Below are positions 2,214 through 33,270 of a stretch of DNA of 44,590 bases, piece by piece. The DNA is from Candidatus Parcubacteria bacterium (GTDB lineage Bacteria > Patescibacteriota > Minisyncoccia > Phycocordibacterales > UBA918), in assembly GCA_041173745.1 (NCBI GenBank), contig JBEDID010000002.1, forward strand, positions 1 to 44,590, given 5' to 3'. The first letter of the stretch is position 1. Each line of letters starts with the position of its first letter. The translations under genes and the position numbers were made by a program. Below the pieces are notes generated by a model. It was given only the letters and a program-made list of their open reading frames with translations. It was not told the origin of the DNA and ran no database searches.

Positions 2214-5200
2214 TTAAGCCACCTCCTTCACCGCTTTCATAATCGCCATTTTCACAGCTGAAGCTTCATCATTATAAGTACCATCAATCGCACCAGTAAG
2301 CGCAGTAATCATGTTCTTGATTTTTTCATCAGACAACTTTTCAGTTTCAGATAAAAGTAAATCAGAAATTATCTGCTTCTCACCCTTACGATGACGAACC
2401 ACAGAATCAAGGTCAGACGCAGCATCAGCAAGCGCAAACATTGGTCGATTACCTATCATTTCGTAAGCCGCTACGATATTACCAGTCACAATCGCTTCGG
2501 CGAGAGAGCCTGAACCTTCAGGAATAGTAGCTGGAATGAAAGCAGTTTTACTTTCCGCCACAGCTTCAATTTGACACTCCACACATAAATTACGCATGCG
2601 AGTTTCGTTAATCACAATCCAACCATCCTCTAGTGGATAATGCTTTTTAGCATCAGCAATTACAACATCGAGTTTTTGATTACGTTCAGCTGTTGTACTA
2701 GTGGTAGCGATAAAGTAACGCACTGCATCACTTGAAAGCAGAGCCTTTTGTTCGTGCGCTCGATTCTCTAGGTTAGTTACCACCTCGTCGGTAGCTTGAT
2801 GTGGATTCACAATCGCTTCTTCCTCAACATGGTTTTCATATCCTATAACAGGAGTTCCAACTGGTAAGTTAGAGGGTGCTAATGTACTCACAACTGATGG
2901 TGTTACTACTTTTGACACAAACACGTCTGGTCGAATAAATTCTGCCTGTTTCATCGCACCCATATTGGTAGGACTGAATTGAGGACCTTTGGCACTCACA
3001 TCACCGTTCGCAATTACTTGTTTGCGAATCACCATTACATAAGCAATGTAAGCCGCCCATGCTACTAATAGTAGGTAGAACATTAGTGTCATAATCGGAC
3101 CAGCTTCAAATCCGGTATACGGAACCTGGCTAAGTGAGATGCCTGCGACTAGTGGTTGCTGATCACGAGTTTGTAAAACTACAGTATTGTTTTTAATAAC
3201 AACTGAAACTTTACACTCCACATCACGTGATCCACGCTCCGCTAGCAAAGTATATTTTGTATCGCGGGTTGGCTTTAGCTTAATAGAGCCATCGTAATAA
3301 TCTTTTTTATCTTTAGACAGATGGTCGGCCGTGGTAAATATTTCCTTACCCTTATCATCTGTCAAAGTAACTTCTGTAGCATTAGAGGTATCCCATTTAA
3401 GAGTAATCTGTTCACCAGAATTAATACTATTATCAGAAATTGTTAACTCACAACGGGGAGAGATACTACCTCCACCGCCTCCACCTCCACCAGTTGTAAC
3501 ACTAATTGGCAGTGGGCAGGAAATTGACTTTGAACCTTGGGTAGCAGTTAGGACGTAAGTAATGTTACTAATTGGTGACACCGACTGACTACCGGCTAAT
3601 GCGGTCGCATTGGTACTACTAATCGCTACTGTATCAACATTTTTTGTACTCCAACTAATGACACTAGAGTCACCTCGTCGAATTGAAGCGGATGAAGCTG
3701 AGAAAGTTACACTGTTAGCACAGCTGAAAACTGGCTCTGGGTTAGGTACAGTTACCGGAGCTACACAACTTACCGTTGCGCCAGAACTATCTGTTGCAGT
3801 CAGGTTAAAGTTGGTTGAACTTGTAACATTTACAGATTTATTACCAATCAAACTTACAACTCCAACTAGCGGTGAAATATTCACACTACTAGCATTGGTT
3901 ACTTTCCAGTTTAGCGCCACTGTGCCACCTCCGACCGGCAAAGTGTTTGGCGTTGCAGTAAATGATTCACATAATGGAAGTGGTTTTGCCGAAACTACCA
4001 CAGGGACTTCACAAGTATGAGTCTTATTATCTGTTCCAATCGCCGTTAGTTTATACGTAACATTTACAAGTGGGGAAACGTTGATTGAGCCGTCTGCGGC
4101 TACAGTACCAACACCGTTATCAATTACCACTTGAGTAGCGTTGGTAGTTTCCCAAGTCAAAAGTGTACTTGAACCAACTCGAATTGCTCCTGGATTAGCC
4201 GTGAATAAATCACAACTTGGAACCGGAGTGCCAACTGACACGTCAGCCACACAACTTACTTGTCCGCCAGCGCCTGTCGCCACGAGAGTATAGACACCAT
4301 TAGTTGTTACTGCTCCGGTTGTTTTAGTTCCGTTTAAATCAACATTACCAAAACTAGTTAAAGTTACAGCATTCGCATTTTTGGTTGTCCAATTAAGCGT
4401 TGCTGTTCCTCCGTAAGCAACTGCTTGCGTAGCTGGAGTAAGGGTACATTCTGGAACTTTTGGCACGTCACATTTATAACTAATAGTCGTTTTAACAATT
4501 TGACTGTATGCCCAAGTTTGGAAGTTACTTAACTCAAGGGCGGTTGCCTTGGCTTGGTTTTTTACTTCAAAGTCGCCACATTGCGCCGGTTTATTTACCT
4601 TTCCAACCCAGACAATAGTACCGGATTCATTAGGTGTAAGTTCAAAACCATTAAAGTGTAGAGTTCGATCGGAACTTGTATATACAGGTTTATCTAAATA
4701 TCCTGCTCCCAAGTTGCTGGTATAAGTATTTCGTAAGTAACTAACGTTAGGATCGATAACATCTTCAATCATGACGCCACTGCCAGTACAACTAGCATCG
4801 CCGATGTTTTTTACCGTTATGGTGTAGGTGAGTTCTTGCTCTGGTATTGCAGTAGCCGTATTAACCGTTTTTTCAACTACTAGCTCACAGGGTTTAGGAG
4901 TCGAACAATCATTATTAATTGCTGTTTTTACAGTCTGACTGTACACCCAAGTTTGGAAGTTATTTAACTCAAGGGCGGTTGCCTTGGCTTGGTTTTTTAC
5001 TTCAAAGTCGCCACACTGGGTAGGATTATTTACTTTTCCAACCCAAGTTATAGTACCCGATTCATTAGGATTAAGGGTATTACCATTAAAATGTAGAGTC
5101 CGGTCACTAGCTGTATAAACTACTGTTCCTGCATATCCAGCTGTTAAATTACCAGAAACTGTATATCTAACATAAGTAATATTTGGATCCAGGACATCAT

Positions 5201-5783
5201 CAATCTTTACTCCACCGCCAGTACAATCAGCGTCGCCGATGTTTTTAACAGTTATTGTATAAGTTAATTCATCACCCGGTACAGCCGTTGATTTATTAAC
5301 TGTTTTTTCAACAATGAGCTTACACTGTGTCACTACTGGTGGTTGAATACAAGTAACTTTAACTTCGGCAGTACAAGTTGAACCAGAATCAGAAACACCA
5401 TAAAGAGTATAGGTGGTATTCACTAGAACATTATTGAAAGTTTTAGAACCAGAATTACCAGAAAGAGCTTCTCCGTTAATAGTCAGGCTTGAAAAACCAC
5501 TAGTATCCCAATTTAAAGTAACACTTTCTCCAGCATTAATTGTCTTTCGGGTAGCATCAATAACACATTTTGTGTAAGTGTTATTTGAAGCGGAAGAGCT
5601 TACAGCTCCAGCTCCTAGGGTAATTCCATCTAATAAACCACCGTCACCGAAACCAAATCCAGTGAAAGCAGAAGTCGTTTCTGTTGACGCCACTAATGCC
5701 GACAACAGTAACGCACCAAGAACCATGACACTGGCCACAGTTTTAAAATATTTTTTCATATTTAATAAAGGATTGTTATTCAT
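2214..5783 (-). CDS. Giant multi-repeat surface protein: signal peptide, Ig-like Cys-bracketed repeats, two DUF11-like repeats, Gly8 linker, internal VPYTG+TM, 267-aa C-terminal tail
   Basis: 1189 aa. N-terminal hydrophobic signal (alternative start MKKYF at 5759). Two ~144-aa repeats carry the motif TYTITVKNIGDA(D/S)CTG (DUF11-like). Six ~75-aa repeats are each bracketed by Cys and carry L(N/T/K)W(D/T/E/K)T. GGGGGGGG encoded at 3468-3491. SQVPYTG (VPYTG encoded at 3111-3125) is followed by the TM segment FEAGPIMTLMFYLLLVAWAAYIAYVMVI and RK. Confidence 0.8.
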   Translation of the reverse strand: MNNNPLLNMKKYFKTVASVMVLGALLLSALVASTETTSAFTGFGFGDGGLLDGITLGAGAVSSSASNNTYTKCVIDATRKTINAGESVTLNWDTSGFSSLTINGEALSGNSGSKTFNNVLVNTTYTLYGVSDSGSTCTAEVKVTCIQPPVVTQCKLIVEKTVNKSTAVPGDELTYTITVKNIGDADCTGGGVKIDDVLDPNITYVRYTVSGNLTAGYAGTVVYTASDRTLHFNGNTLNPNESGTITWVGKVNNPTQCGDFEVKNQAKATALELNNFQTWVYSQTVKTAINNDCSTPKPCELVVEKTVNTATAIPEQELTYTITVKNIGDASCTGSGVMIEDVIDPNVSYLRNTYTSNLGAGYLDKPVYTSSDRTLHFNGFELTPNESGTIVWVGKVNKPAQCGDFEVKNQAKATALELSNFQTWAYSQIVKTTISYKCDVPKVPECTLTPATQAVAYGGTATLNWTTKNANAVTLTSFGNVDLNGTKTTGAVTTNGVYTLVATGAGGQVSCVADVSVGTPVPSCDLFTANPGAIRVGSSTLLTWETTNATQVVIDNGVGTVAADGSINVSPLVNVTYKLTAIGTDNKTHTCEVPVVVSAKPLPLCESFTATPNTLPVGGGTVALNWKVTNASSVNISPLVGVVSLIGNKSVNVTSSTNFNLTATDSSGATVSCVAPVTVPNPEPVFSCANSVTFSASSASIRRGDSSVISWSTKNVDTVAISSTNATALAGSQSVSPISNITYVLTATQGSKSISCPLPISVTTGGGGGGGGSISPRCELTISDNSINSGEQITLKWDTSNATEVTLTDDKGKEIFTTADHLSKDKKDYYDGSIKLKPTRDTKYTLLAERGSRDVECKVSVVIKNNTVVLQTRDQQPLVAGISLSQVPYTGFEAGPIMTLMFYLLLVAWAAYIAYVMVIRKQVIANGDVSAKGPQFSPTNMGAMKQAEFIRPDVFVSKVVTPSVVSTLAPSNLPVGTPVIGYENHVEEEAIVNPHQATDEVVTNLENRAHEQKALLSSDAVRYFIATTSTTAERNQKLDVVIADAKKHYPLEDGWIVINETRMRNLCVECQIEAVAESKTAFIPATIPEGSGSLAEAIVTGNIVAAYEMIGNRPMFALADAASDLDSVVRHRKGEKQIISDLLLSETEKLSDEKIKNMITALTGAIDGTYNDEASAVKMAIMKAVKEVA
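4501..5013 (-). repeat. Near-identical ~80-bp DNA repeat inside the two DUF11-like modules
   Basis: 4501-4580 and 4935-5013 share ...ccaagtttggaagtta(c/t)ttaactcaagggcggttgccttggcttggttttttacttcaaagtcgccaca, about 434 bp apart (one protein repeat unit). Flanking parts of the modules are much more diverged. Confidence 0.85.
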
Positions 5784-5942
5784 AAAATTTATACTCTCAC
5801 CTACACCATATACGCAAGAGTAACGAAGTTTACCAAGTAACTACAATCAAAATTTAGAAAAGAACTAAGGTGAACAAGTGTTCAAGAAGTACGATGTGTT
5901 ATTGCAAGAATGTCCCTCTGCAGGGATTTTGTCAATATATTG

Positions 5943-6629
5943 TTACAATTTTCGTACTTCAATTTGCTCTGCTTCCACGATATATCGATCATCCGTACTA
6001 CCAAAACTATTGCAGGTTGCAAGGGTTAGGCGTTTTTCCGCTCCCGCAATTGGCACCGTCAAATCTTGAGCTTTAGCTCGATAGACTTTATCGACTCGAT
6101 ATTCATATACAGATTCATCTGAATAAACTTCAACAACGTCGCCCCACTCTAAACTTTGAATACCATTAAAAGCTTGAAAATTCTTATTAAAGACGGTTGG
6201 TAAATAACTAGAATGTCCAAGAATAAATACATTACCAGCCTGACCCAACTCGGCCGAATCAGGATGTCGAACTACACCATTCAACAAAGCTGCATCGAGA
6301 TCAGCAATTGCACGTGAAGTTGGATTGGCCACAGAGACTTTTTTGTTGAGTTTTACAATATTAATAGTCAAAGGCAACTCATACTGATTCTCAGTAGTAG
6401 AAGCTTCTACTTTAGTAATTACTGGTGAAACTATAGTAAGTGGAAATTCTGTTTTAGTTTCAGATGATACCAAAGCGGTTGAAGTAGCTTCTTCAGATTC
6501 ATTAGTCGCTGGTGGCTCAGGCACAAAATCGATGGCCACTAAAGCAACGTACGATAAAGTGAACACAATAAAAAACGTGCCTAAAAACACAAACTTTCGT
6601 TCCCAAATTTGTTGCAAGATGTAATCCAT
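5943..6629 (-). CDS. Sortase-family transpeptidase (membrane-anchored)
   Basis: 228 aa. N-terminal TM (FVFLGTFFIVFTLSYVALVAI). Catalytic His context FILGHSSY, Cys motif TLATC, downstream Arg (DDRYIVEAE). Confidence 0.85.
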   Translation of the reverse strand: MDYILQQIWERKFVFLGTFFIVFTLSYVALVAIDFVPEPPATNESEEATSTALVSSETKTEFPLTIVSPVITKVEASTTENQYELPLTINIVKLNKKVSVANPTSRAIADLDAALLNGVVRHPDSAELGQAGNVFILGHSSYLPTVFNKNFQAFNGIQSLEWGDVVEVYSDESVYEYRVDKVYRAKAQDLTVPIAGAEKRLTLATCNSFGSTDDRYIVEAEQIEVRKL

Positions 6630-26938: not shown

Positions 26939-28594
26939 TTATGTCTTATCCTCAGTCCGTCTGCGAACAAGAAAGTAAAAAAGTGTCATTAAGGACAATA
27001 TGACTAGAGCAATTAAACCGGCCTGCGAATATTTATAAATTTGATCCGGAAAAACCACGGCTTCTGTAGGATTTACCACTGGGGCAACAAACTGCAAAGG
27101 AGCCTGATAAGTCGCTACAACAAATGCTTCATAATCATAAATAGCAACTTTAATCTGCGAACTACCAATTACCATCAGTGGAGCAATAGTCGCTTCATAG
27201 GCTGTCTGATCTTTATTCACACGCAACAAAAATGAGTACACTTGACGATTGTCGGTTGGATCTAAGACGGTCGCAATGATAGATTTTAGATTACCGGCTA
27301 TTGAGTGGTACGGGATAGAAATCACAAATGACTGGTCACTATTGAGCGATATATTTGTTTTCGATAAATCAAAAACCTCTCCCGTCTGATTTATTTTTAT
27401 TTCAGCTGCCTGCGGCATTTTCATGTCGACAGTTACACGATTAGTAGAAACGCTAGAGGTCGCTTCAGCTGTGATAATTGGTGCTTGTATACCAGATTGA
27501 GGTAGATTATCTCCAGTTTTATCTTCGTCTTTTTGATTAGAGTTTGGTAAAACCAAATTATTCTCAGCGTAAGCCATTGCTACTGCCCCAGATGAAACAT
27601 TACCAAAAATGTCATAGACAAAGGCTGTGTAGTAGGCCGGAGAATACTGCGCTAATATGCCAACATCTACAACCCCGGTCTCGGTACCTTGGTACACAAC
27701 CGCACCAGCTTGAGGATAATCAGGAAATCCTATGTAACTACGAACAATACGTACGTAAGCAAATTTATCATCGGTCGGTAATTGCCATGACAATTTCACA
27801 TCCTCACCTTGGGCTGTTGCTTGAAAACGATTAACATTGACGGGAGAAAACACTTGTTCATTATCTAGAGTCTGAAACCAACCGGACTTTAATACCGAGT
27901 GCTGCCCGTATGGAGTGTAACCTATGACTTCATAATTATATTTAGTACCTGGCTCTAATTCTGTCAGTAAAATAGAGTGGTCTTTAGAGTATATTTCTCT
28001 AACAACATATCCTAGTTCATACGAAGCAGTCTTTCCCCAACGTACTTCAATCCGCGCTGGTAATGCTGTGGTCAGTTGCAGACTAGTGGTTGAAACTCCT
28101 GTTGTAATCGAAAAATCTCGCAGCACCACTCTAGCGATTGTACTTTCAGTAGATGTTACATCTGGGGTCGAAGTCGAAGACGGGGGCAATGGAGGCACTG
28201 GTGGAACAACTCCAGAAGTGGTAGTAGCTAAACTGTTTGAACTCGATGAGTAATTTAAAGCAGGATCAAAAGCTCTAATCACATATGAATAAGTTGTACT
28301 CGCAGCTAATCCTGCATCAGAATAATTATGTAAAGTGGTGGTAGCAATAGGCAAACCATCACGCACCACAACATAACCCGCCAACATAAAATTGTCGGTT
28401 GAAACTGACCATGTGAGATCAATTTGAGTAGCAGCAATAGGAGCCGCTGTAAGTAAAACTGGGGTAGATGGTGCAATGCTATCTGCGCCACTTAATGCTA
28501 CACGAACATTAAAGGCATTTGAATCGACAGCTTGTACCGACCCTATCTGTACCACAAAGAAAAAGGCACAACCTAAAATAAAAAGTTTCTTCAT
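26939..28594 (-). CDS. Secreted protein with about three fibronectin-III-like domains and a C-terminal TM anchor
   Basis: The ORF track starts at 28645. ATG 28594 gives MKKLFILGCAFFFVVQIGSVQA (signal peptide) and removes the overlap with the upstream gene. FN3-like segments include PSTPVLLTAAPIAATQIDLTWS...YSYVIRAFD. C-terminal TM AGLIALVILSLMTLFYFLV is followed by RRRTEDKT. Confidence 0.7.
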   Translation of the reverse strand: MKKLFILGCAFFFVVQIGSVQAVDSNAFNVRVALSGADSIAPSTPVLLTAAPIAATQIDLTWSVSTDNFMLAGYVVVRDGLPIATTTLHNYSDAGLAASTTYSYVIRAFDPALNYSSSSNSLATTTSGVVPPVPPLPPSSTSTPDVTSTESTIARVVLRDFSITTGVSTTSLQLTTALPARIEVRWGKTASYELGYVVREIYSKDHSILLTELEPGTKYNYEVIGYTPYGQHSVLKSGWFQTLDNEQVFSPVNVNRFQATAQGEDVKLSWQLPTDDKFAYVRIVRSYIGFPDYPQAGAVVYQGTETGVVDVGILAQYSPAYYTAFVYDIFGNVSSGAVAMAYAENNLVLPNSNQKDEDKTGDNLPQSGIQAPIITAEATSSVSTNRVTVDMKMPQAAEIKINQTGEVFDLSKTNISLNSDQSFVISIPYHSIAGNLKSIIATVLDPTDNRQVYSFLLRVNKDQTAYEATIAPLMVIGSSQIKVAIYDYEAFVVATYQAPLQFVAPVVNPTEAVVFPDQIYKYSQAGLIALVILSLMTLFYFLVRRRTEDKT

Positions 28595-28601
28595 CTGTCT
28601 A

Positions 28602-29372
28602 TTATAACGGTAAAGCGGTGACAGTAGAGGTCGCGGTATACACACCCGACTCCACTCCAGCCGAACTTCCTATGCCAATTCTAAAATAAACAGTCGTAGT
28701 TGCGCCACTAGGATGATTGGCTGCTAGTCCTGTAGCAATCGTCGTCGGAGTTACATTCAAACCATCCCAACAAGCCAAGGCTGTTTGTCCTGATCCAAGA
28801 TTACAACTTCCTCCATCATCAAGAAATGCTTGCACTATATCGACCCCTTTGGGTGAATACCCGAGATGAGCATCAGTACCACCAATAAGAAAGGAGAAAT
28901 CTGGTTCAGGACCCGCATTATAATCAGCTATTGCTCCCCCTCCTCCATCACGTTGCATAGCTGGATTATTTTGAGCTTGGATTGTAAGTTGATAACCAGC
29001 TGGACTGTCAGTAGTAACCGTAAAAGTCGTAGAGCCATTTGAAGTTCCTCCGGTTAACCCCGGTAAGTCTGGAGACATGTTTACATCACCACTACTAGCA
29101 AGGCTGATAAAAACCTCCTGCATTTGTTGGTAACCAGCTCGCAAAGAATATGTCGTACTGTCCAATGGACCTGTCGCAATCTCACCTACAGTACTTTCTT
29201 GTCGATATGAAGTAGAGCTTGAATATCCACCGCCAATATTAACACTGTCGCTTTGCAGTTGATAATTATTACTAGTACGCACCTGTGCAATGGACACCTG
29301 AAAAAAGCTCAAAACTAAAGTTGTAGCTACTACTGATTGCCCTAATGAATTTAGTAAACTCCTAATTTTCAT
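28602..29372 (-). CDS. Secreted protein, paralog 2 of a WxL-like(?) family, with N-terminal SxNY repeat region
   Basis: 256 aa. Signal peptide. SNNYQL/STSYRQ/STTYSL repeats. Shares GLTGG, AGYQLTI, FLDDGGSCNLGSGQTALACW and C-terminal YTATSTVTALPL with the 30461-31180 product. Confidence 0.6.
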   Translation of the reverse strand: MKIRSLLNSLGQSVVATTLVLSFFQVSIAQVRTSNNYQLQSDSVNIGGGYSSSTSYRQESTVGEIATGPLDSTTYSLRAGYQQMQEVFISLASSGDVNMSPDLPGLTGGTSNGSTTFTVTTDSPAGYQLTIQAQNNPAMQRDGGGGAIADYNAGPEPDFSFLIGGTDAHLGYSPKGVDIVQAFLDDGGSCNLGSGQTALACWDGLNVTPTTIATGLAANHPSGATTTVYFRIGIGSSAGVESGVYTATSTVTALPL

Positions 29373-29374
29373 AT

Positions 29375-30445
29375 TTAATCACCTTTCCGCTTAAATTCAA
29401 ACCTTCGGAAAAATGCTTTCATGATGAAAATAATAAAGAACAAAATAAGGAATATTCCACCAACAATCTTCCAAGGCAAGACCCAGAATGACACTGAAAC
29501 TTCATCAATAACATCTTCGTAACCACGATTTACTTTTGCCGTAACGGTGTATCGACCAAGTAAAAATTCACGATCCCAAGTTACGTCTCTAATTCGAAGT
29601 GAGCCAGGCAAAACAAACCAAGGTTCTAGTTCGACAAAACCAACTTCTTCACCGAACATATTTTTAATAGACAATTCTCCATAAGGATTAACGTGAACTG
29701 AACCTGTGTTTTCATACAAAACTCCTAATTCAATTGGACCCTTTTCATACCACCATTTATTATCAATAGTAGTCAGAGACAACGTCTTACCTTCGGTTTT
29801 TGCCTCCCCTTTAACCCGCAAGAAAAAGAGAGAACCAACTCGAGCAATAATCGGTGACCGCGGTGCAGTAGCCGTATTAGCTTCACTGTTCTGAACTGTT
29901 GAAACAAGAACACTACCATAATAACCACCTGGCTCAGCATCTGGTGGTACGGTAATTTTTACTGGAATTCGAGCTCTTTCACCTAATTCAAGAACGAGTT
30001 CATCCTTAGGAAAAGAAATATAATCCCGAATACTGTACGGCCCTCGACTAGCACCCGTCAAACTAACAGCGCTACTTCCATCAGTACTACCTGCAATATC
30101 TTCCACTTCTAATCTAAAGGTTCTAGTCGCACTGATACGATTAGTAACAGTCACCTCTTGGATGACCGTTTCACCTGGACTCACTTCTATCTCTGTCCGA
30201 CCGGGACCAACTACAAAGTCTCCAACTTCAGGATTACCAGAGATGTGCTCAGATTTATACCAAAGATCGTCGTTAATGTTTGCATCAACAGGTAGAACTA
30301 ATTCGGTAGTGGTCGCAACAGCATCGACTGCTGAAACAGAAAGGTCTGCTTCTTGCGCAAAAACCTCTCCGGAGAGAGGTGTTGCAAGGAGTACCATTAG
30401 GCAAAAAATAAATAAATTTCTCAGAAGTGTAGTCATAATTTTCAT
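29375..30445 (-). CDS. Signal-peptide protein with two beta-rich domains and C-terminal TM plus basic tail (DUF916/DUF3324-like architecture)
   Basis: 356 aa. Signal peptide ending AQEA. VVGPGRTEIEVSPGETVIQEVTVTNR (Ig-like strand pattern). Second domain PIELGVLYENTGSVHVNPYGELSIKN...GRYTVTAKV. C-terminus WKIVGGIFLILFFIIFIMKAFFRRFEFKRKGD. Confidence 0.6.
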   Translation of the reverse strand: MKIMTTLLRNLFIFCLMVLLATPLSGEVFAQEADLSVSAVDAVATTTELVLPVDANINDDLWYKSEHISGNPEVGDFVVGPGRTEIEVSPGETVIQEVTVTNRISATRTFRLEVEDIAGSTDGSSAVSLTGASRGPYSIRDYISFPKDELVLELGERARIPVKITVPPDAEPGGYYGSVLVSTVQNSEANTATAPRSPIIARVGSLFFLRVKGEAKTEGKTLSLTTIDNKWWYEKGPIELGVLYENTGSVHVNPYGELSIKNMFGEEVGFVELEPWFVLPGSLRIRDVTWDREFLLGRYTVTAKVNRGYEDVIDEVSVSFWVLPWKIVGGIFLILFFIIFIMKAFFRRFEFKRKGD

Positions 30446-30460
30446 ACGCTACAGTCTACT

Positions 30461-31180
30461 TTAAAGTGCCAGTAGTGACAAGGTAGCTGTGGCTGTATAG
30501 GTCTGAGCTTCTGGAACTGGGACAGGACTGTTCGGAACTGTGATATTGAAGGTTATAGTTGAGGTAGCTCCAGTTGGTGCTGAACTGCCCCGAGTCACAA
30601 TCTGAAAAGGAGCAGTACTAGGAGCTTTCCAACATTTTAGAGGAGTCTGGGCTGCTCCAGCATTACAAGCAGCACCATTGTTTAAGAAGGAAAGATCAGT
30701 ATCAGTGGTAGTGGTAGATGTTACTGTGTATGCGAACTGAGCGGCAGTACTAGCGGTACGACCATACGATGGTTGACCTCCCACGTCTCCACTGTAATCT
30801 CGGATAGCTTCACTACCATCAATATCACCTGCCATTGATTGTGCTCCAGTATTATCAAAGAAGTCAATTGAAACAGTGTACCCAGCAGCATTGTTTGTCA
30901 AAACAACAAACTGAGAAGTGCCTGTAGCCTGACCGCCTGTCAAACCTGAGATAGACCCAGTCATTGAGACATTATTTGGTTGTACCAAGAATGAGTTTTC
31001 AGAAGTGACTGTAGCACGAACATAAAAATCAGTACTGTTTACTGCCTGACCAATTGCCGGCTCAGCCAAGAAGAAGCCCATGAATAATAATGAGAGAATA
31101 GTCCCACTAGCAAGTACCGCGTACGTTGCTGATTGAGTTATGTTGTTTTTATATTGTGTAATCATATTATTTTTTGTCAT
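30461..31180 (-). CDS. Secreted protein, paralog 1 of a WxL-like(?) family
   Basis: 239 aa. N-terminal hydrophobic signal (AVLASGTILSLLFMGFFLAEPAIGQA). GLTGG, AGYTVSI, FLNNGAACNAGAAQTPLKCW, C-terminal YTATATLSLLAL. Confidence 0.6.
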   Translation of the reverse strand: MTKNNMITQYKNNITQSATYAVLASGTILSLLFMGFFLAEPAIGQAVNSTDFYVRATVTSENSFLVQPNNVSMTGSISGLTGGQATGTSQFVVLTNNAAGYTVSIDFFDNTGAQSMAGDIDGSEAIRDYSGDVGGQPSYGRTASTAAQFAYTVTSTTTTDTDLSFLNNGAACNAGAAQTPLKCWKAPSTAPFQIVTRGSSAPTGATSTITFNITVPNSPVPVPEAQTYTATATLSLLAL

Positions 31181-31293: not shown

Positions 31294-32028
31294 TTATATG
31301 TCTGAAGATACTATAGGTACCACCACAAAAGGAATCTCTGAACCAATAAGATTTCCGACTTTATCAACCCGACCTACTACGTAACTACCATCTTCCTTTT
31401 GCACAGCCACAACCTCGTCAGAGAATAAAGAGTTGACGGATGTGGTCGAACCACTAGCTGGCAATAAAAGCACACCTTGTTTAACATCACCTAATCCTTG
31501 TATATCTTGAGAAACTGAATTATTAATCGGAGCTACAGTAACCTCTGACACAACTGACTCAACCGAATTTTGCATATTTGTTGCCTCAGCCACACTACCA
31601 GTGAAACGTTGTGAGGTGTGACTGTCAACTAATTGGATTGGTTTAGTCAGTATAAATTGATGAACTCCCCAGCCACTAAGTATTCCAAAAGACAAAACCA
31701 CTAGAGCTATCGCGACAGCTCTAGTATGCAGGGACCGAGCTCGTTTATTGTGTACTTTTTTTTGAGCGATAACACTATCTCTAACCTGACATTCTTGTTT
31801 ACGCTCCTCGCTTAATTGACGCTTACGCACCTCTTGTTCAAGAACCATATTTTGAGAATAAGCTTTGAGTGAATCAAGATCAACAAACCATTGTCGACCA
31901 ACTACGGTAGCAAAAATTTTACCTTCACGGGCTAGTCGTGTGACGTAGTCCCTAGAATAAGAAACAGCATTCGCAGCCTCTTTGATTGGCGAAAGTTTTT
32001 TACCATCTATTTCTAAAACGTCTAACAT
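31294..32028 (-). CDS. Membrane-tethered HTH (excisionase/MerR-like HTH_17-type) protein, paralog B
   Basis: The ORF track starts at TTG 32076. ATG 32028 (MLDVLEIDGKKLSPIKEAANAVSYSRDYVTRLAREGKIFATVVGRQWFVDLDSL) aligns with the N-terminus of the upstream paralog. A basic coiled segment follows, then TM AVAIALVVLSFGILSGWGV and a ~120-aa extracytoplasmic tail. Confidence 0.65.
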   Translation of the reverse strand: MLDVLEIDGKKLSPIKEAANAVSYSRDYVTRLAREGKIFATVVGRQWFVDLDSLKAYSQNMVLEQEVRKRQLSEERKQECQVRDSVIAQKKVHNKRARSLHTRAVAIALVVLSFGILSGWGVHQFILTKPIQLVDSHTSQRFTGSVAEATNMQNSVESVVSEVTVAPINNSVSQDIQGLGDVKQGVLLLPASGSTTSVNSLFSDEVVAVQKEDGSYVVGRVDKVGNLIGSEIPFVVVPIVSSDI

Positions 32029-32118
32029 AACAAGCTTGTCTTTAATTATAAAGCCAAAACATGTCATCAACACCAACGGAGTGTGTATAAGTTTTAATAT
32101 CTAAAAAAGACTGCGGTC

Positions 32119-33270
32119 TTAAAGGTGTAGCATCTGCAACAAAGTCTGGAAGTCCAGTGTGACAAACGAACGGTAAGTAACGTCACCAGCGACTACGAAG
32201 TTAGTGGCTGACAGAAGCATTAGTACAGCAAACAAGGCCAGTACAGTAGCAATCAAAGGCGACACGCGGACCAAAAAAGACATTTCAGCAACCACTTCGG
32301 GAATAGCAAGAATCTGTGGAATTATTGGTATTGGCAAATTATCTACCACCGCTGCAACGGCAGTAGTTTTAACAAACGCCTCAGCAGCAGGCTCAGGTAT
32401 TACTGTGACAATATTTTTAAACTCGGGTAACGGTGTGAGAACTTCATTTTTAACCTCTGGGGGAGTAGTAGGTAAAGGATTAGGAACATTAGTTTTGATA
32501 CTTTCAGACATTGGGGGAAATACGATAGCCATCTTTCTAGGGACAATATTTACCATACTGGTCTTACGCTTGAATAATGTAAGGCCTTTTCTTTTTGGTT
32601 TATCATCAACCTTTGGTGCAACAATTTTTGACACAAGCTCCGAGATAACTTTATTAATATGATTATCACTGGTCTCGGTCTCAACTTTTGATTCGGTATT
32701 TGCTTCTGATTCAGATTCTGGTTTGGGCACATCTGGAAAAGTTGTAACTGTAAGCTTGCCAGATAACGCAACGTCTGGAATGGCAGTTGGAGTAAAAGTT
32801 GAAAGATTCTGCTTACCGCCAACATTTATTTTATAAGCATCGGCTTGATCTATTCTGATTGATTTCGCTGGCTGATAATGTTTCTTGATAAGTTTTGGAA
32901 TAAGAAATTCATCGTCAATTTCATAAGAGATTTTTAATTTTCTACTTTTGTCAGATGTAATTTTTATCGGTGAGACAGGAAATGATTTATGTACTCGAGC
33001 TGTTACCTCCGGAAACACGTCAACCCGTTGTGGCTTTATATTACTAGATATTTCGGAAGAAAGATGTTCAACCTGAGTAACAGTAATGAATTTATTATCT
33101 TTGTGTTCTTGAATCGAATCGGGATTAACAAACCATGATCGACCGACCAAACGAGCATCGACTTTCTTTCCCCGACATAGTTGTCCAACATAATCTGAGG
33201 TATATTTAAAACGCTTAGCAATCACTGACGCTTTAACATAAAGAACTCCATCTAGTACCACTGTATCCAT
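32119..33270 (-). CDS. Membrane-tethered HTH (excisionase/MerR-like HTH_17-type) protein, paralog A, tail-anchored
   Basis: 383 aa. N-terminus VVLDGVLYVKASVIAKRFKYTSDYVGQLCRGKKVDARLVGRSWFVNPDSI (HTH followed by the R-x-W-x-V motif). Long Pro/Glu/Lys-rich linker. TM VSPLIATVLALFAVLMLLSA near the C-terminus. SD GGAG 5 nt upstream of the ATG. Confidence 0.65.
   Translation of the reverse strand: MDTVVLDGVLYVKASVIAKRFKYTSDYVGQLCRGKKVDARLVGRSWFVNPDSIQEHKDNKFITVTQVEHLSSEISSNIKPQRVDVFPEVTARVHKSFPVSPIKITSDKSRKLKISYEIDDEFLIPKLIKKHYQPAKSIRIDQADAYKINVGGKQNLSTFTPTAIPDVALSGKLTVTTFPDVPKPESESEANTESKVETETSDNHINKVISELVSKIVAPKVDDKPKRKGLTLFKRKTSMVNIVPRKMAIVFPPMSESIKTNVPNPLPTTPPEVKNEVLTPLPEFKNIVTVIPEPAAEAFVKTTAVAAVVDNLPIPIIPQILAIPEVVAEMSFLVRVSPLIATVLALFAVLMLLSATNFVVAGDVTYRSFVTLDFQTLLQMLHL

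Follow-up and report, generated by a model that had tools for sequence, protein, structure and literature searches.

Genes of the cassette

Four co-directional open reading frames (ORFs), here called A, B, C and D, lie in the order A-B-C-D on the minus strand of a stretch of DNA from a Candidatus Parcubacteria bacterium (GCA_041173745.1, contig JBEDID010000002.1, positions 1-44,590 of the forward strand; "the window" means this whole stretch of 44,590 nucleotides), and together they form a candidate pilus operon. The window's ORF list places 15 nucleotides between A and B, 2 between B and C and 7 between C and D; each product begins with an N-terminal signal peptide, and all four are presumably exported by the Sec pathway. 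A sequence-only reading of the same DNA had described four packed minus-strand genes with gaps of 2-15 nucleotides, all encoding exported proteins, and the coordinates, gaps and signal peptides agree with that description. The genes, and the segments within them to which the text returns, are:

30461-31180, minus strand: gene A, 239 amino acids (aa); small secreted pilin-like protein, paralog of C
29375-30445, minus strand: gene B, 356 aa; signal peptide, two immunoglobulin (Ig)-like domains, C-terminal transmembrane (TM) helix
29384-29473, minus strand: C-terminal TM helix and basic tail of B (residues 325-354), WKIVGGIFLILFFIIFIMKAFFRRFEFKRKGD; a helix in the AlphaFold2 model
28602-29372, minus strand: gene C, 256 aa; signal peptide, N-terminal extension, predicted pilin-like truncated Ig core
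29118-29285, minus strand: N-terminal extension of C (residues 30-85); proposed donor-strand region
26939-28594, minus strand: gene D, 551 aa; signal peptide, N-terminal strand, FN3 domains, further beta-rich region, TM helix, RRR tail
28487-28528, minus strand: N-terminal strand of mature D, VDSNAFNVRVALSG; proposed donor strand plugging the last pilin
26966-27022, minus strand: C-terminal TM helix of D, AGLIALVILSLMTLFYFLV, then RRRTEDKT; read from the sequence

The longest ORF for D, 26939-28645, begins at a GTG codon, but the orthologs favour a start at 28594, where the protein begins MKKLF and has 551 aa.

Protein B

The AlphaFold2 model of B, with a mean predicted local distance difference test score (pLDDT) of 76.5, has beta domains at residues 64-184 and 200-322 and a helix at residues 325-354, followed by a basic tail, just as had been read for this 356-aa protein, signal peptide included. 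The sequence FWVLPWK and the hydrophobic stretch that accompanies it are near-invariant in the B family, and the C-terminal helix should retain B in the cytoplasmic membrane, with its two Ig-like domains exposed.

By sequence, by profile and by structure, B is a homolog of the WxLIP (WxL-interacting protein)/DUF916 proteins of Firmicutes. Its sole meaningful sequence match in the PDB is EfmWxLIP1 (9i25_C, 9i1y). The E-value of this match was 3e-3 for the sequence taken singly, and profiles of increasing diversity improved it to 1.2e-4 and finally 1.5e-7. The Pfam family WxLIP_PGBD (PF06030, DUF916) matches the window's B at E=3.7e-4, which is under the gathering score, and 22 of 38 diverse B orthologs, the best at E=1.8e-6. 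For family-level comparison, eight genes for WxLIPs and eleven for small WxL proteins were drawn as a reference set from plasmids of Enterococcus, Lactococcus, Lactiplantibacillus, Levilactobacillus and Vagococcus; hhalign gave the B family and the eight WxLIPs a probability of 96.9% (E=1.9e-10), the unrealigned alignment covering 293 columns. Foldseek, run with the model against the PDB, placed the Enterococcus faecium WxLIP (9i1y/9i25_C) first, at E ~4e-12, and RbmA second; these were followed by the chaperone-usher chaperones CfaA, CsuC, CupB2, DraB, FaeE, EcpB, Caf1M and FimC at E-values of 1e-8 to 1e-5. As modelled, B is structurally like the PapD-type pilus chaperones, and we propose that it is a membrane-tethered chaperone. 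The sequence-only reading had called B DUF916-DUF3324-like. The first half of that description stands; for the second, no Pfam match to DUF3324 was obtained with the window's B or with the 38 orthologs, while Foldseek aligns 265-268 columns with WxLIP chains of 251-267 residues. The Pfam families of PapD chaperones and fimbrial subunits were matched by none of the cassette proteins, the 38 B orthologs or 62 A- and C-type proteins.

Proteins A and C

A and C are paralogs, 32% identical over 198 aa by BLASTP (E=4e-22), and hhalign joins their families at 100% probability (E=6e-48). Common to both are GLTGG, AGY(T/Q)(V/L)(S/T)I, FL(N/D)xGxxCNxGxxQTxLxCW and YTAT(A/S)T...L(A/P)L, every one of the motifs from which their paralogy had originally been recognised, and a conserved Cys pair of the kind expected of extracellular proteins. 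The further suggestion that they are WxL proteins devoid of tryptophan found no support. None of the 62 A- and C-type proteins matches Pfam WxL, even at E<=1; four query alignments of the A and C families gave less than 2% probability in hhalign against the 11 plasmid-borne small WxL proteins, the sole aligned stretch being an 8-residue one in which GYxLxI falls on the GWxLxV motif; and the first 50 Foldseek matches of the C model do not include the WxL chain of 9i25. At the WxL-motif positions A and C read GYxL and TxTAL, without Trp. With Pfam and hhalign negative and the resemblance confined to a coincidence of eight residues, a WxL identity of A and C was rejected. Sequence searches of the PDB with A and C returned insignificant filamin matches and one weak match, to BtpiA, only. 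The A/C family profile meets BtpiA (9jdi_C) at E=0.007, over the region GGxTGG...WxVxTNxxGYxL; no paper on BtpiA was found in the literature.

What C does match is a component of the Pam pili, which were identified in 2026 in one cultivated parasite of the Saccharimonadia, Candidatus Mycosynbacter amalyticus, and were traced by means of their two-domain pilins (bioRxiv 10.64898/2026.03.03.709456). The pam operon encodes the pilins PamA, PamB and PamE, together with PamT, the chaperones PamC and PamD, and PamR (bioRxiv 10.64898/2026.03.03.709456; NCBIfam NF058579, NF058581). The PamA and PamB filaments have been solved and form through donor-strand exchange, the donated linker being the most conserved element of the Pam pilins, and no usher was found in the system; PamT is the inferred tip pilin, single-domain and described without a donor strand, PamC and PamD are inferred to be PapD-like chaperones with C-terminal TM helices, and PamR an FnIII (RbmA-like) membrane anchor that has a donor strand at its N-terminus and a TM segment at its C-terminus (bioRxiv 10.64898/2026.03.03.709456).

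In NCBIfam the sole match of C is NF058579, "CPR-type pilus protein PamT" (CPR being the Candidate Phyla Radiation), at E=3.7e-11 and 42.9 bits over C residues 15-134. The model is matched by 31 of the 62 A- and C-type proteins, all 31 of them C-type, with E-values from 1e-9 to 2.4e-13. When five distant orthologs of each kind were scanned individually, all five C-position proteins matched (36-48 bits) and none of the five A-type proteins did. One relative (P0260) aligns to nearly the whole model, positions 7-235 of 241. C is a distant homolog of PamT and probably a Pam-type pilin.

In the AlphaFold2 model of C, ten-residue blocks over residues 111-256 average pLDDT 80-94 and those over 81-110 average 59-70, while residues 29-84 lie below 50. 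The top Foldseek matches of this model are chaperone-usher pilins (the pilin domain of PapG, CfaB, PapE, FimA/I and CsuA/B), with probabilities up to 1.0. The poorly modelled part includes the extension, about 55 aa long, which is made up of three strand-like repeats, SxNYQLQSDSxNxGGG, SSSTSYxQESTxGExATG and SxSxxYSLRAGYQQMQ. It is on this N-terminal part that the PamT match falls. Despite being disordered in the monomer model, the extension is the most conserved segment of the C family, with a mean top-residue frequency of 0.67 vs 0.59 in the core (76 sequences), and it is collinear with the inter-domain linker of those relatives that have an NTD-linker-CTD build.

These relatives are one of three types of longer protein found with the C profile: (i) fusions of B to C; (ii) proteins with an N-terminal domain, the extension and the core, an NTD-linker-CTD arrangement like the one that PamA and PamB are reported to have; and (iii) proteins with a further domain inserted between extension and core. 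Several candidates for PamA/B-like two-domain pilins were rejected, being B-C fusions instead. The contexts of the two-domain relatives are mostly short contigs, but in two loci, L098 and L096, a two-domain pilin occupies the C position of a cassette otherwise like that in the window. The second of these, on a 21 kb contig (JGI 3300029286), runs helix-turn-helix (HTH) gene, A-type, B, a 380-aa unknown protein, two-domain C-type pilin and D-type, with Avd-like genes interleaved, and adjoins a diversity-generating retroelement that comprises a reverse transcriptase, bAvd and a target of FGE-sulfatase fold, 951 aa long. In P0242, P0252 and P0383 the domain inserted between extension and core is about 345 aa long, and the extension-plus-core module also stands at the C-terminus of two giant proteins, P0327 (2187 aa) and P0379 (1205 aa). 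Residues 7-153 of P0296, the N-terminal domain of a two-domain relative, weakly match TafC in NCBIfam (E=1.2e-6); TafC is a subunit of the haloarchaeal Tat-fimbriae, which are assembled by strand donation. We propose that C is a polymerising shaft subunit.

A lacks the extension of C, the first two repeats being missing, and has no PamT, WxL or PDB sequence match. Its gene lies upstream of B in 79 related loci, and across relatives it is more variable than B and C. The signal peptide of A (31036-31180) carries (F/L)xxEP or FEP just past its hydrophobic core, a few residues before the likely cleavage site; this motif is common to the A-type orthologs of loci L005-L081, is missing from the signal peptides of B-, C- and D-type proteins, and could mark special processing or recognition. 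A is proposed to be an acceptor-only tip or cap subunit.

Protein D

D was originally described as having roughly three FN3 domains ahead of a C-terminal TM helix and an RRR tail. The hydrophobic helix followed by RRRTEDKT is there, and the TM helix is kept in D-type orthologs; as for the domains, a canonical FN3 lies at residues 37-127 (PDB 1k85, E=4e-8; also 8pn5), further Pfam fn3 matches bring the number detected by profile to at least two, and three are plausible from the sequence pattern. D orthologs stand at the same position in 73 loci. In every D-position protein an N-terminal strand comes straight after the signal peptide, though what stands behind it varies: close relatives have FN3, distant relatives have Cys-rich CNNNGxCE modules, and a few have dockerin-like tails. 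The motif of this strand co-varies with that of the A-type N-terminal strand of the same genome, both reading SxxFxVR where the relative is close and DxVxVxLxV where it is distant. The D-position proteins of L067, L078, L079 and L081 are about 220 aa long, with a signal peptide and N-terminal strand, and a dockerin-like end (NQDVVVNSVDLSLLLKNL) replaces the TM helix. D resembles PamR in architecture only, and is proposed to be the terminator and anchor.

With the four proteins described, the main rival to a fibre can be set out: a non-filamentous surface complex of WxL type, in which B would hold A and C one-to-one at the surface, much as WxLIP is proposed to do with WxL proteins in Firmicutes, D would be a separate anchored adhesin and no polymer would form. 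The homology of B to WxLIP/DUF916 speaks for it at all three levels, as does the make-up of the cluster. The sequence-only reading had likened the set, two small paralogs together with a two-domain TM protein and an anchored one, to the WxL clusters, and the parallel is sound, two paralogs of ~240-260 aa and one WxLIP-like protein mirroring the commonest WxL cluster, in which one WxLIP is accompanied by two WxL proteins (PMC10599100). The plasmid-borne small WxL proteins are of similar size (195-287 aa), and GYxLxI and the C-terminal YTATxTxTAxPL recall GWxLxV and YxTTLTWxLxxTP. Against such a complex stand the lack of detectable WxL homology in A and C, in Pfam and in hhalign alike, the missing Trp residues that define the family, the match of C to PamT and its likeness in fold to chaperone-usher pilins, and the TM anchor of D in place of an LPXTG signal; nor would it give a role to the conserved, unstructured extension of C or to the matching N-terminal strand of D. 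We consider it unlikely.

Conservation of the cassette in relatives

When the GTDB species representatives were scanned for two B peptides, 114 genomes were found, from which 80 loci were kept for ORF and BLAST analysis; the scan returned loci of Paceibacteria type only. The complete order A-type, B, C-type, D-type, all on the same strand, is present in 66 of the 80, a recurrence far beyond chance, while the identity of B to the window protein declines to about 38% across the set. The four-gene system is real and strongly conserved, and the synteny that the sequence-only reading put up for testing does recur. Among the 14 incomplete loci, a contig end truncates five (L013, L015, L077, L082 and L083) beside the cassette, and five others (L067, L071, L078, L079 and L081) have a D-position protein that has diverged beyond recognition by BLAST; in L056 the A-type gene went unrecognised, L064 has no D gene, and the other two are L075 and L084.

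On four long contigs A-B-C-D is followed by GAPDH-RpiB-Rpe-Tkt. Flanking genes are retained in the closer relatives only, and in distant relatives every flank differs, which makes the four genes themselves the conserved unit. Identity to the window proteins ranks B > C > A > D across relatives, so that B and C appear constrained and A and D variable. B has 1358 database relatives, of which the best 120 share 63-80% identity with it, and C has 1336, of which the best 120 share 61-83%; the named relatives of B and C among the matches listed are CPR bacteria labelled Kaiserbacteria, Nomurabacteria or Pacebacteria. The whole-library profile search with C-type proteins gave 1165 representative clusters (50% identity clusters) at E<=1e-3.

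In about 14 representative clusters a single ORF fuses a B-type to a C-type protein (for example P0254, P0255, P0261, P0264, P0272, P0278, P0280, P0281, P0302, P0311 and P0353, and loci L093-L095). These could be genuine, or they could be artefacts that arise repeatedly from frameshifts or read-through on short contigs; in both cases they link B with C.

Two further alternatives have to be weighed against this pattern, both less likely than the WxL-like complex. According to one, the four are co-transcribed Ig-fold surface or wall proteins that have no assembly relationship and are kept together by operon inertia beside genes of glycolysis. Ig-like and FN3 folds are generic, the interaction of the four proteins is inferred only, and in close relatives the block does adjoin GAPDH, RpiB, Rpe and Tkt. 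But the gene order persists in distant relatives in which all flanks have changed, the N-terminal strands of A and D co-vary, B-C fusions occur, and the homologies to PamT and WxLIP are specific ones, all of which makes a mere assortment of surface proteins highly improbable. According to the other, A and C self-assemble outside the cell into a matrix fibre like that of TasA/camelysin, or into another fibre formed by strand donation without a chaperone, and B and D are unrelated surface proteins. The TasA fibre 8aur is among the Foldseek matches of C (E=1.6e-2), TasA homologs have been reported in Patescibacteria (PMC9245690), and the weak TafC match of one relative's N-terminal domain is to a strand-donation fimbrial subunit. 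On the other side, none of the 62 A- and C-type proteins matches Pfam Peptidase_M73 (PF12389), and no gene for a SipW-type peptidase or a TapA-like protein is found in the cassette, which led to the rejection of TasA/camelysin as such; and B, the most conserved member, always adjacent and sometimes fused to C, is arguably part of the machinery. A fibre that dispenses with B is accordingly very unlikely.

Proposed assembly

The cassette probably encodes a minimal donor-strand fibre of the Pam type, the pilus system of CPR bacteria, assembled with the help of a chaperone and without an usher. The description that fits it best is a Pam-type pilus operon in a minimal, single-domain variant, whose chaperone is a WxLIP homolog tethered to the membrane. 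Sequences and models give the export signals, the TM anchors, the domain folds, the homologies, the conservation of the extension, the synteny and the fusions; the steps of assembly we infer. B would transiently complete the open fold of freshly exported A and C. C would then polymerise head-to-tail, the extension of each subunit entering the groove of the preceding one. A, having no extension, could only accept a strand and would therefore sit at the distal tip, as a variable and possibly host-binding subunit. D would give its N-terminal strand to the last C, which would both stop growth and tie the fibre to the membrane, while its FN3 stalk would span the wall. On this scheme the successive genes would encode tip (A), chaperone (B), shaft (C) and anchor (D).

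Several groups of observations support this Pam-type fibre. One is the combination in C of the PamT match, the pilin-like core and a conserved extension collinear with the linker of two-domain relatives; others are the likeness of B to WxLIP and to chaperone-usher chaperones, and the parts in common with the pam operon, which likewise has a single-domain pilin, PapD-like chaperones with a TM helix, an FnIII protein and no usher; a last one is genomic coupling, seen in the synteny that outlasts the flanking genes, the B-C fusions and the co-variation of the A and D strands. A number of points weigh against it. The 42.9 bits of C fall short of the NF058579 equivalog cutoff of 240, and the PamT match is mostly confined to the N-terminal half of the model (positions 5-131 of 241). 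NCBIfam scans of B and D gave no match to any Pam chaperone or PamR model. The Foldseek support for C is weak, with E-values of 2e-3 or poorer and TM-scores of 0.3-0.58, and Ig-like folds are common, which limits the weight of its structural match. Two-domain major pilins (PamA/B/E) are missing from the window, A and C each having a single domain; C bears a conserved extension, whereas PamT is described without a donor strand; and the cassette is not in an ATP-synthase neighbourhood, its neighbours being GAPDH, RpiB, Rpe, Tkt, GatB and HTH proteins. In the Pam system itself only PamA and PamB have been seen in filaments, the roles of PamT, PamC/D and PamR being AlphaFold inferences (bioRxiv 10.64898/2026.03.03.709456), and for the cassette a filament, a complex and strand insertion are predictions.

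The reach of the cassette appears wide, given 114 GTDB species representatives found with two peptides alone and the 1165 C-type clusters. This suggests that a stripped-down, single-domain version of the Pam system is a conserved core-genome feature of Paceibacteria-type CPR bacteria, extending a recently discovered pilus class to a large uncultured clade. To our knowledge these bacteria have no cultured representatives, and the means by which they attach to hosts is unknown. With only four proteins, the cassette also offers a tractable system for usher-less donor-strand assembly.

Genomic setting

The genes around the cassette in the window are housekeeping genes (ThrRS, GyrB, PheST, EF-Ts, S2, RF, L25, Tkt, Rpe, RpiB, GAPDH, GatB, Obg, SecA and MurB), which places it in the core chromosome of a reduced genome. 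Base composition is unremarkable, at a GC content of about 0.42, and a promoter and terminator scan gave counts no higher than expected from shuffling.

Immediately upstream of A lie two minus-strand genes, 31294-32076 and 32119-33270, whose products have an HTH_17/excisionase-like DNA-binding domain at the N-terminus and a hydrophobic segment. Relatives of these HTH genes adjoin the cassette in about 27 of the 80 loci; in close relatives they lie upstream of it, and in distant relatives short forms of them lie downstream of D. HTH-domain genes flank the Firmicute WxL loci L085, L089 and L091 too. The HTH proteins upstream of A may be a linked regulator.

A separate sortase-dependent surface protein locus is also present in the window (2214-6629), consisting of a gene for a 1189-aa DUF11/CARDB repeat surface protein (2214-5783, minus strand) and an adjoining sortase gene (5943-6629, minus strand). 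That sortase is the only one in the window and is some 20 kb from the cassette; A, C and D have no LPXTG signal, and sortase-assembled pili were rejected as an identity for the cassette on these grounds.

Comparison with known systems

The likeness to chaperone-usher pili (Pap, Fim, CFA/I, Csu) lies in structure and in logic: Foldseek pairs the predicted core of C with pilins and the two-domain fold of B with chaperones, and the proposed arrangement of an acceptor-only tip, a donor-plus-acceptor shaft and a terminator is the same. The cassette system would differ in having neither outer membrane nor usher, in a chaperone tethered to the membrane and in a terminator that doubles as membrane anchor, and in sequence its proteins show no similarity to the Pfam families of PapD or of fimbrial subunits. 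A classical chaperone-usher system was rejected, no usher being found among the four genes and the likeness being structural only.

With the WxL/Csc clusters of Firmicutes the cassette shares the WxLIP layout of B (signal peptide, two Ig domains, TM helix) and a complement of two small secreted paralogs of WxL-like size and an anchored protein; in the Firmicute clusters a strand of WxLIP is predicted to enter WxL, a chaperone-like contact (PMC10599100; PDB 9i1y, 9i25). The differences are that A and C have neither WxL motifs nor detectable WxL homology, that a DUF3324 half in B is indicated only by structure or full-length profile alignment and not by Pfam, that D, which has no LPXTG, is anchored by a TM helix where the WxL partner is anchored by LPXTG and sortase, and that the host belongs to the CPR and not to the Firmicutes.

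The closest relationship is with the Pam pili, so that the cassette is not of an entirely uncharacterised kind, as the sequence-only reading had suggested in case the WxL relationship failed. Both systems are found only in CPR bacteria, export their parts by Sec (presumably so in the cassette) and lack an usher. The Pam pilins have a truncated Ig-like domain, which is predicted for C as well, and C matches the PamT model; in both systems conservation within the pilin is highest in the linker or donor region. B is a two-Ig-domain, PapD-like protein with a C-terminal TM helix, as PamC and PamD are by description, and D has the FnIII build, N-terminal strand and C-terminal TM anchor of PamR, a likeness of architecture only. 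With one counterpart in the cassette for each inferred Pam role (PamT, PamC/D, PamR), it would be expected to work like the Pam system. It is not a typical Pam member, having only four genes with a single chaperone, a second, extension-less paralog in A, a Paceibacteria-type genome and a C whose similarity to PamT stands at 43 vs the 240 bits of the equivalog cutoff. The survey in the preprint covered PamA and PamB only and located them chiefly in Saccharimonadia and Microgenomatia; the text makes no mention of Paceibacteria and is silent on WxL and DUF916 (bioRxiv 10.64898/2026.03.03.709456).

The link in sequence between the presumed chaperone B and DUF916/WxLIP suggests a mechanism that can be tested in the WxL clusters of enterococci, listeriae and lactobacilli, which are poorly understood. 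One tentative idea, which we hold to be rather doubtful, is that the cassette is a "missing link", the Firmicute WxL/WxLIP clusters and the CPR Pam pili being branches of one ancient, usher-less chaperone-subunit system of monoderms. On this idea the DUF916-DUF3324-TM proteins may be general membrane-tethered donor-strand chaperones, with WxL proteins held or assembled by strand complementation and not by simple peptidoglycan binding; and the four-gene form, with its acceptor-only tip, chaperone, donor-plus-acceptor shaft and donor-only anchor, may be the minimal ancestral design, kept across the Paceibacteria.

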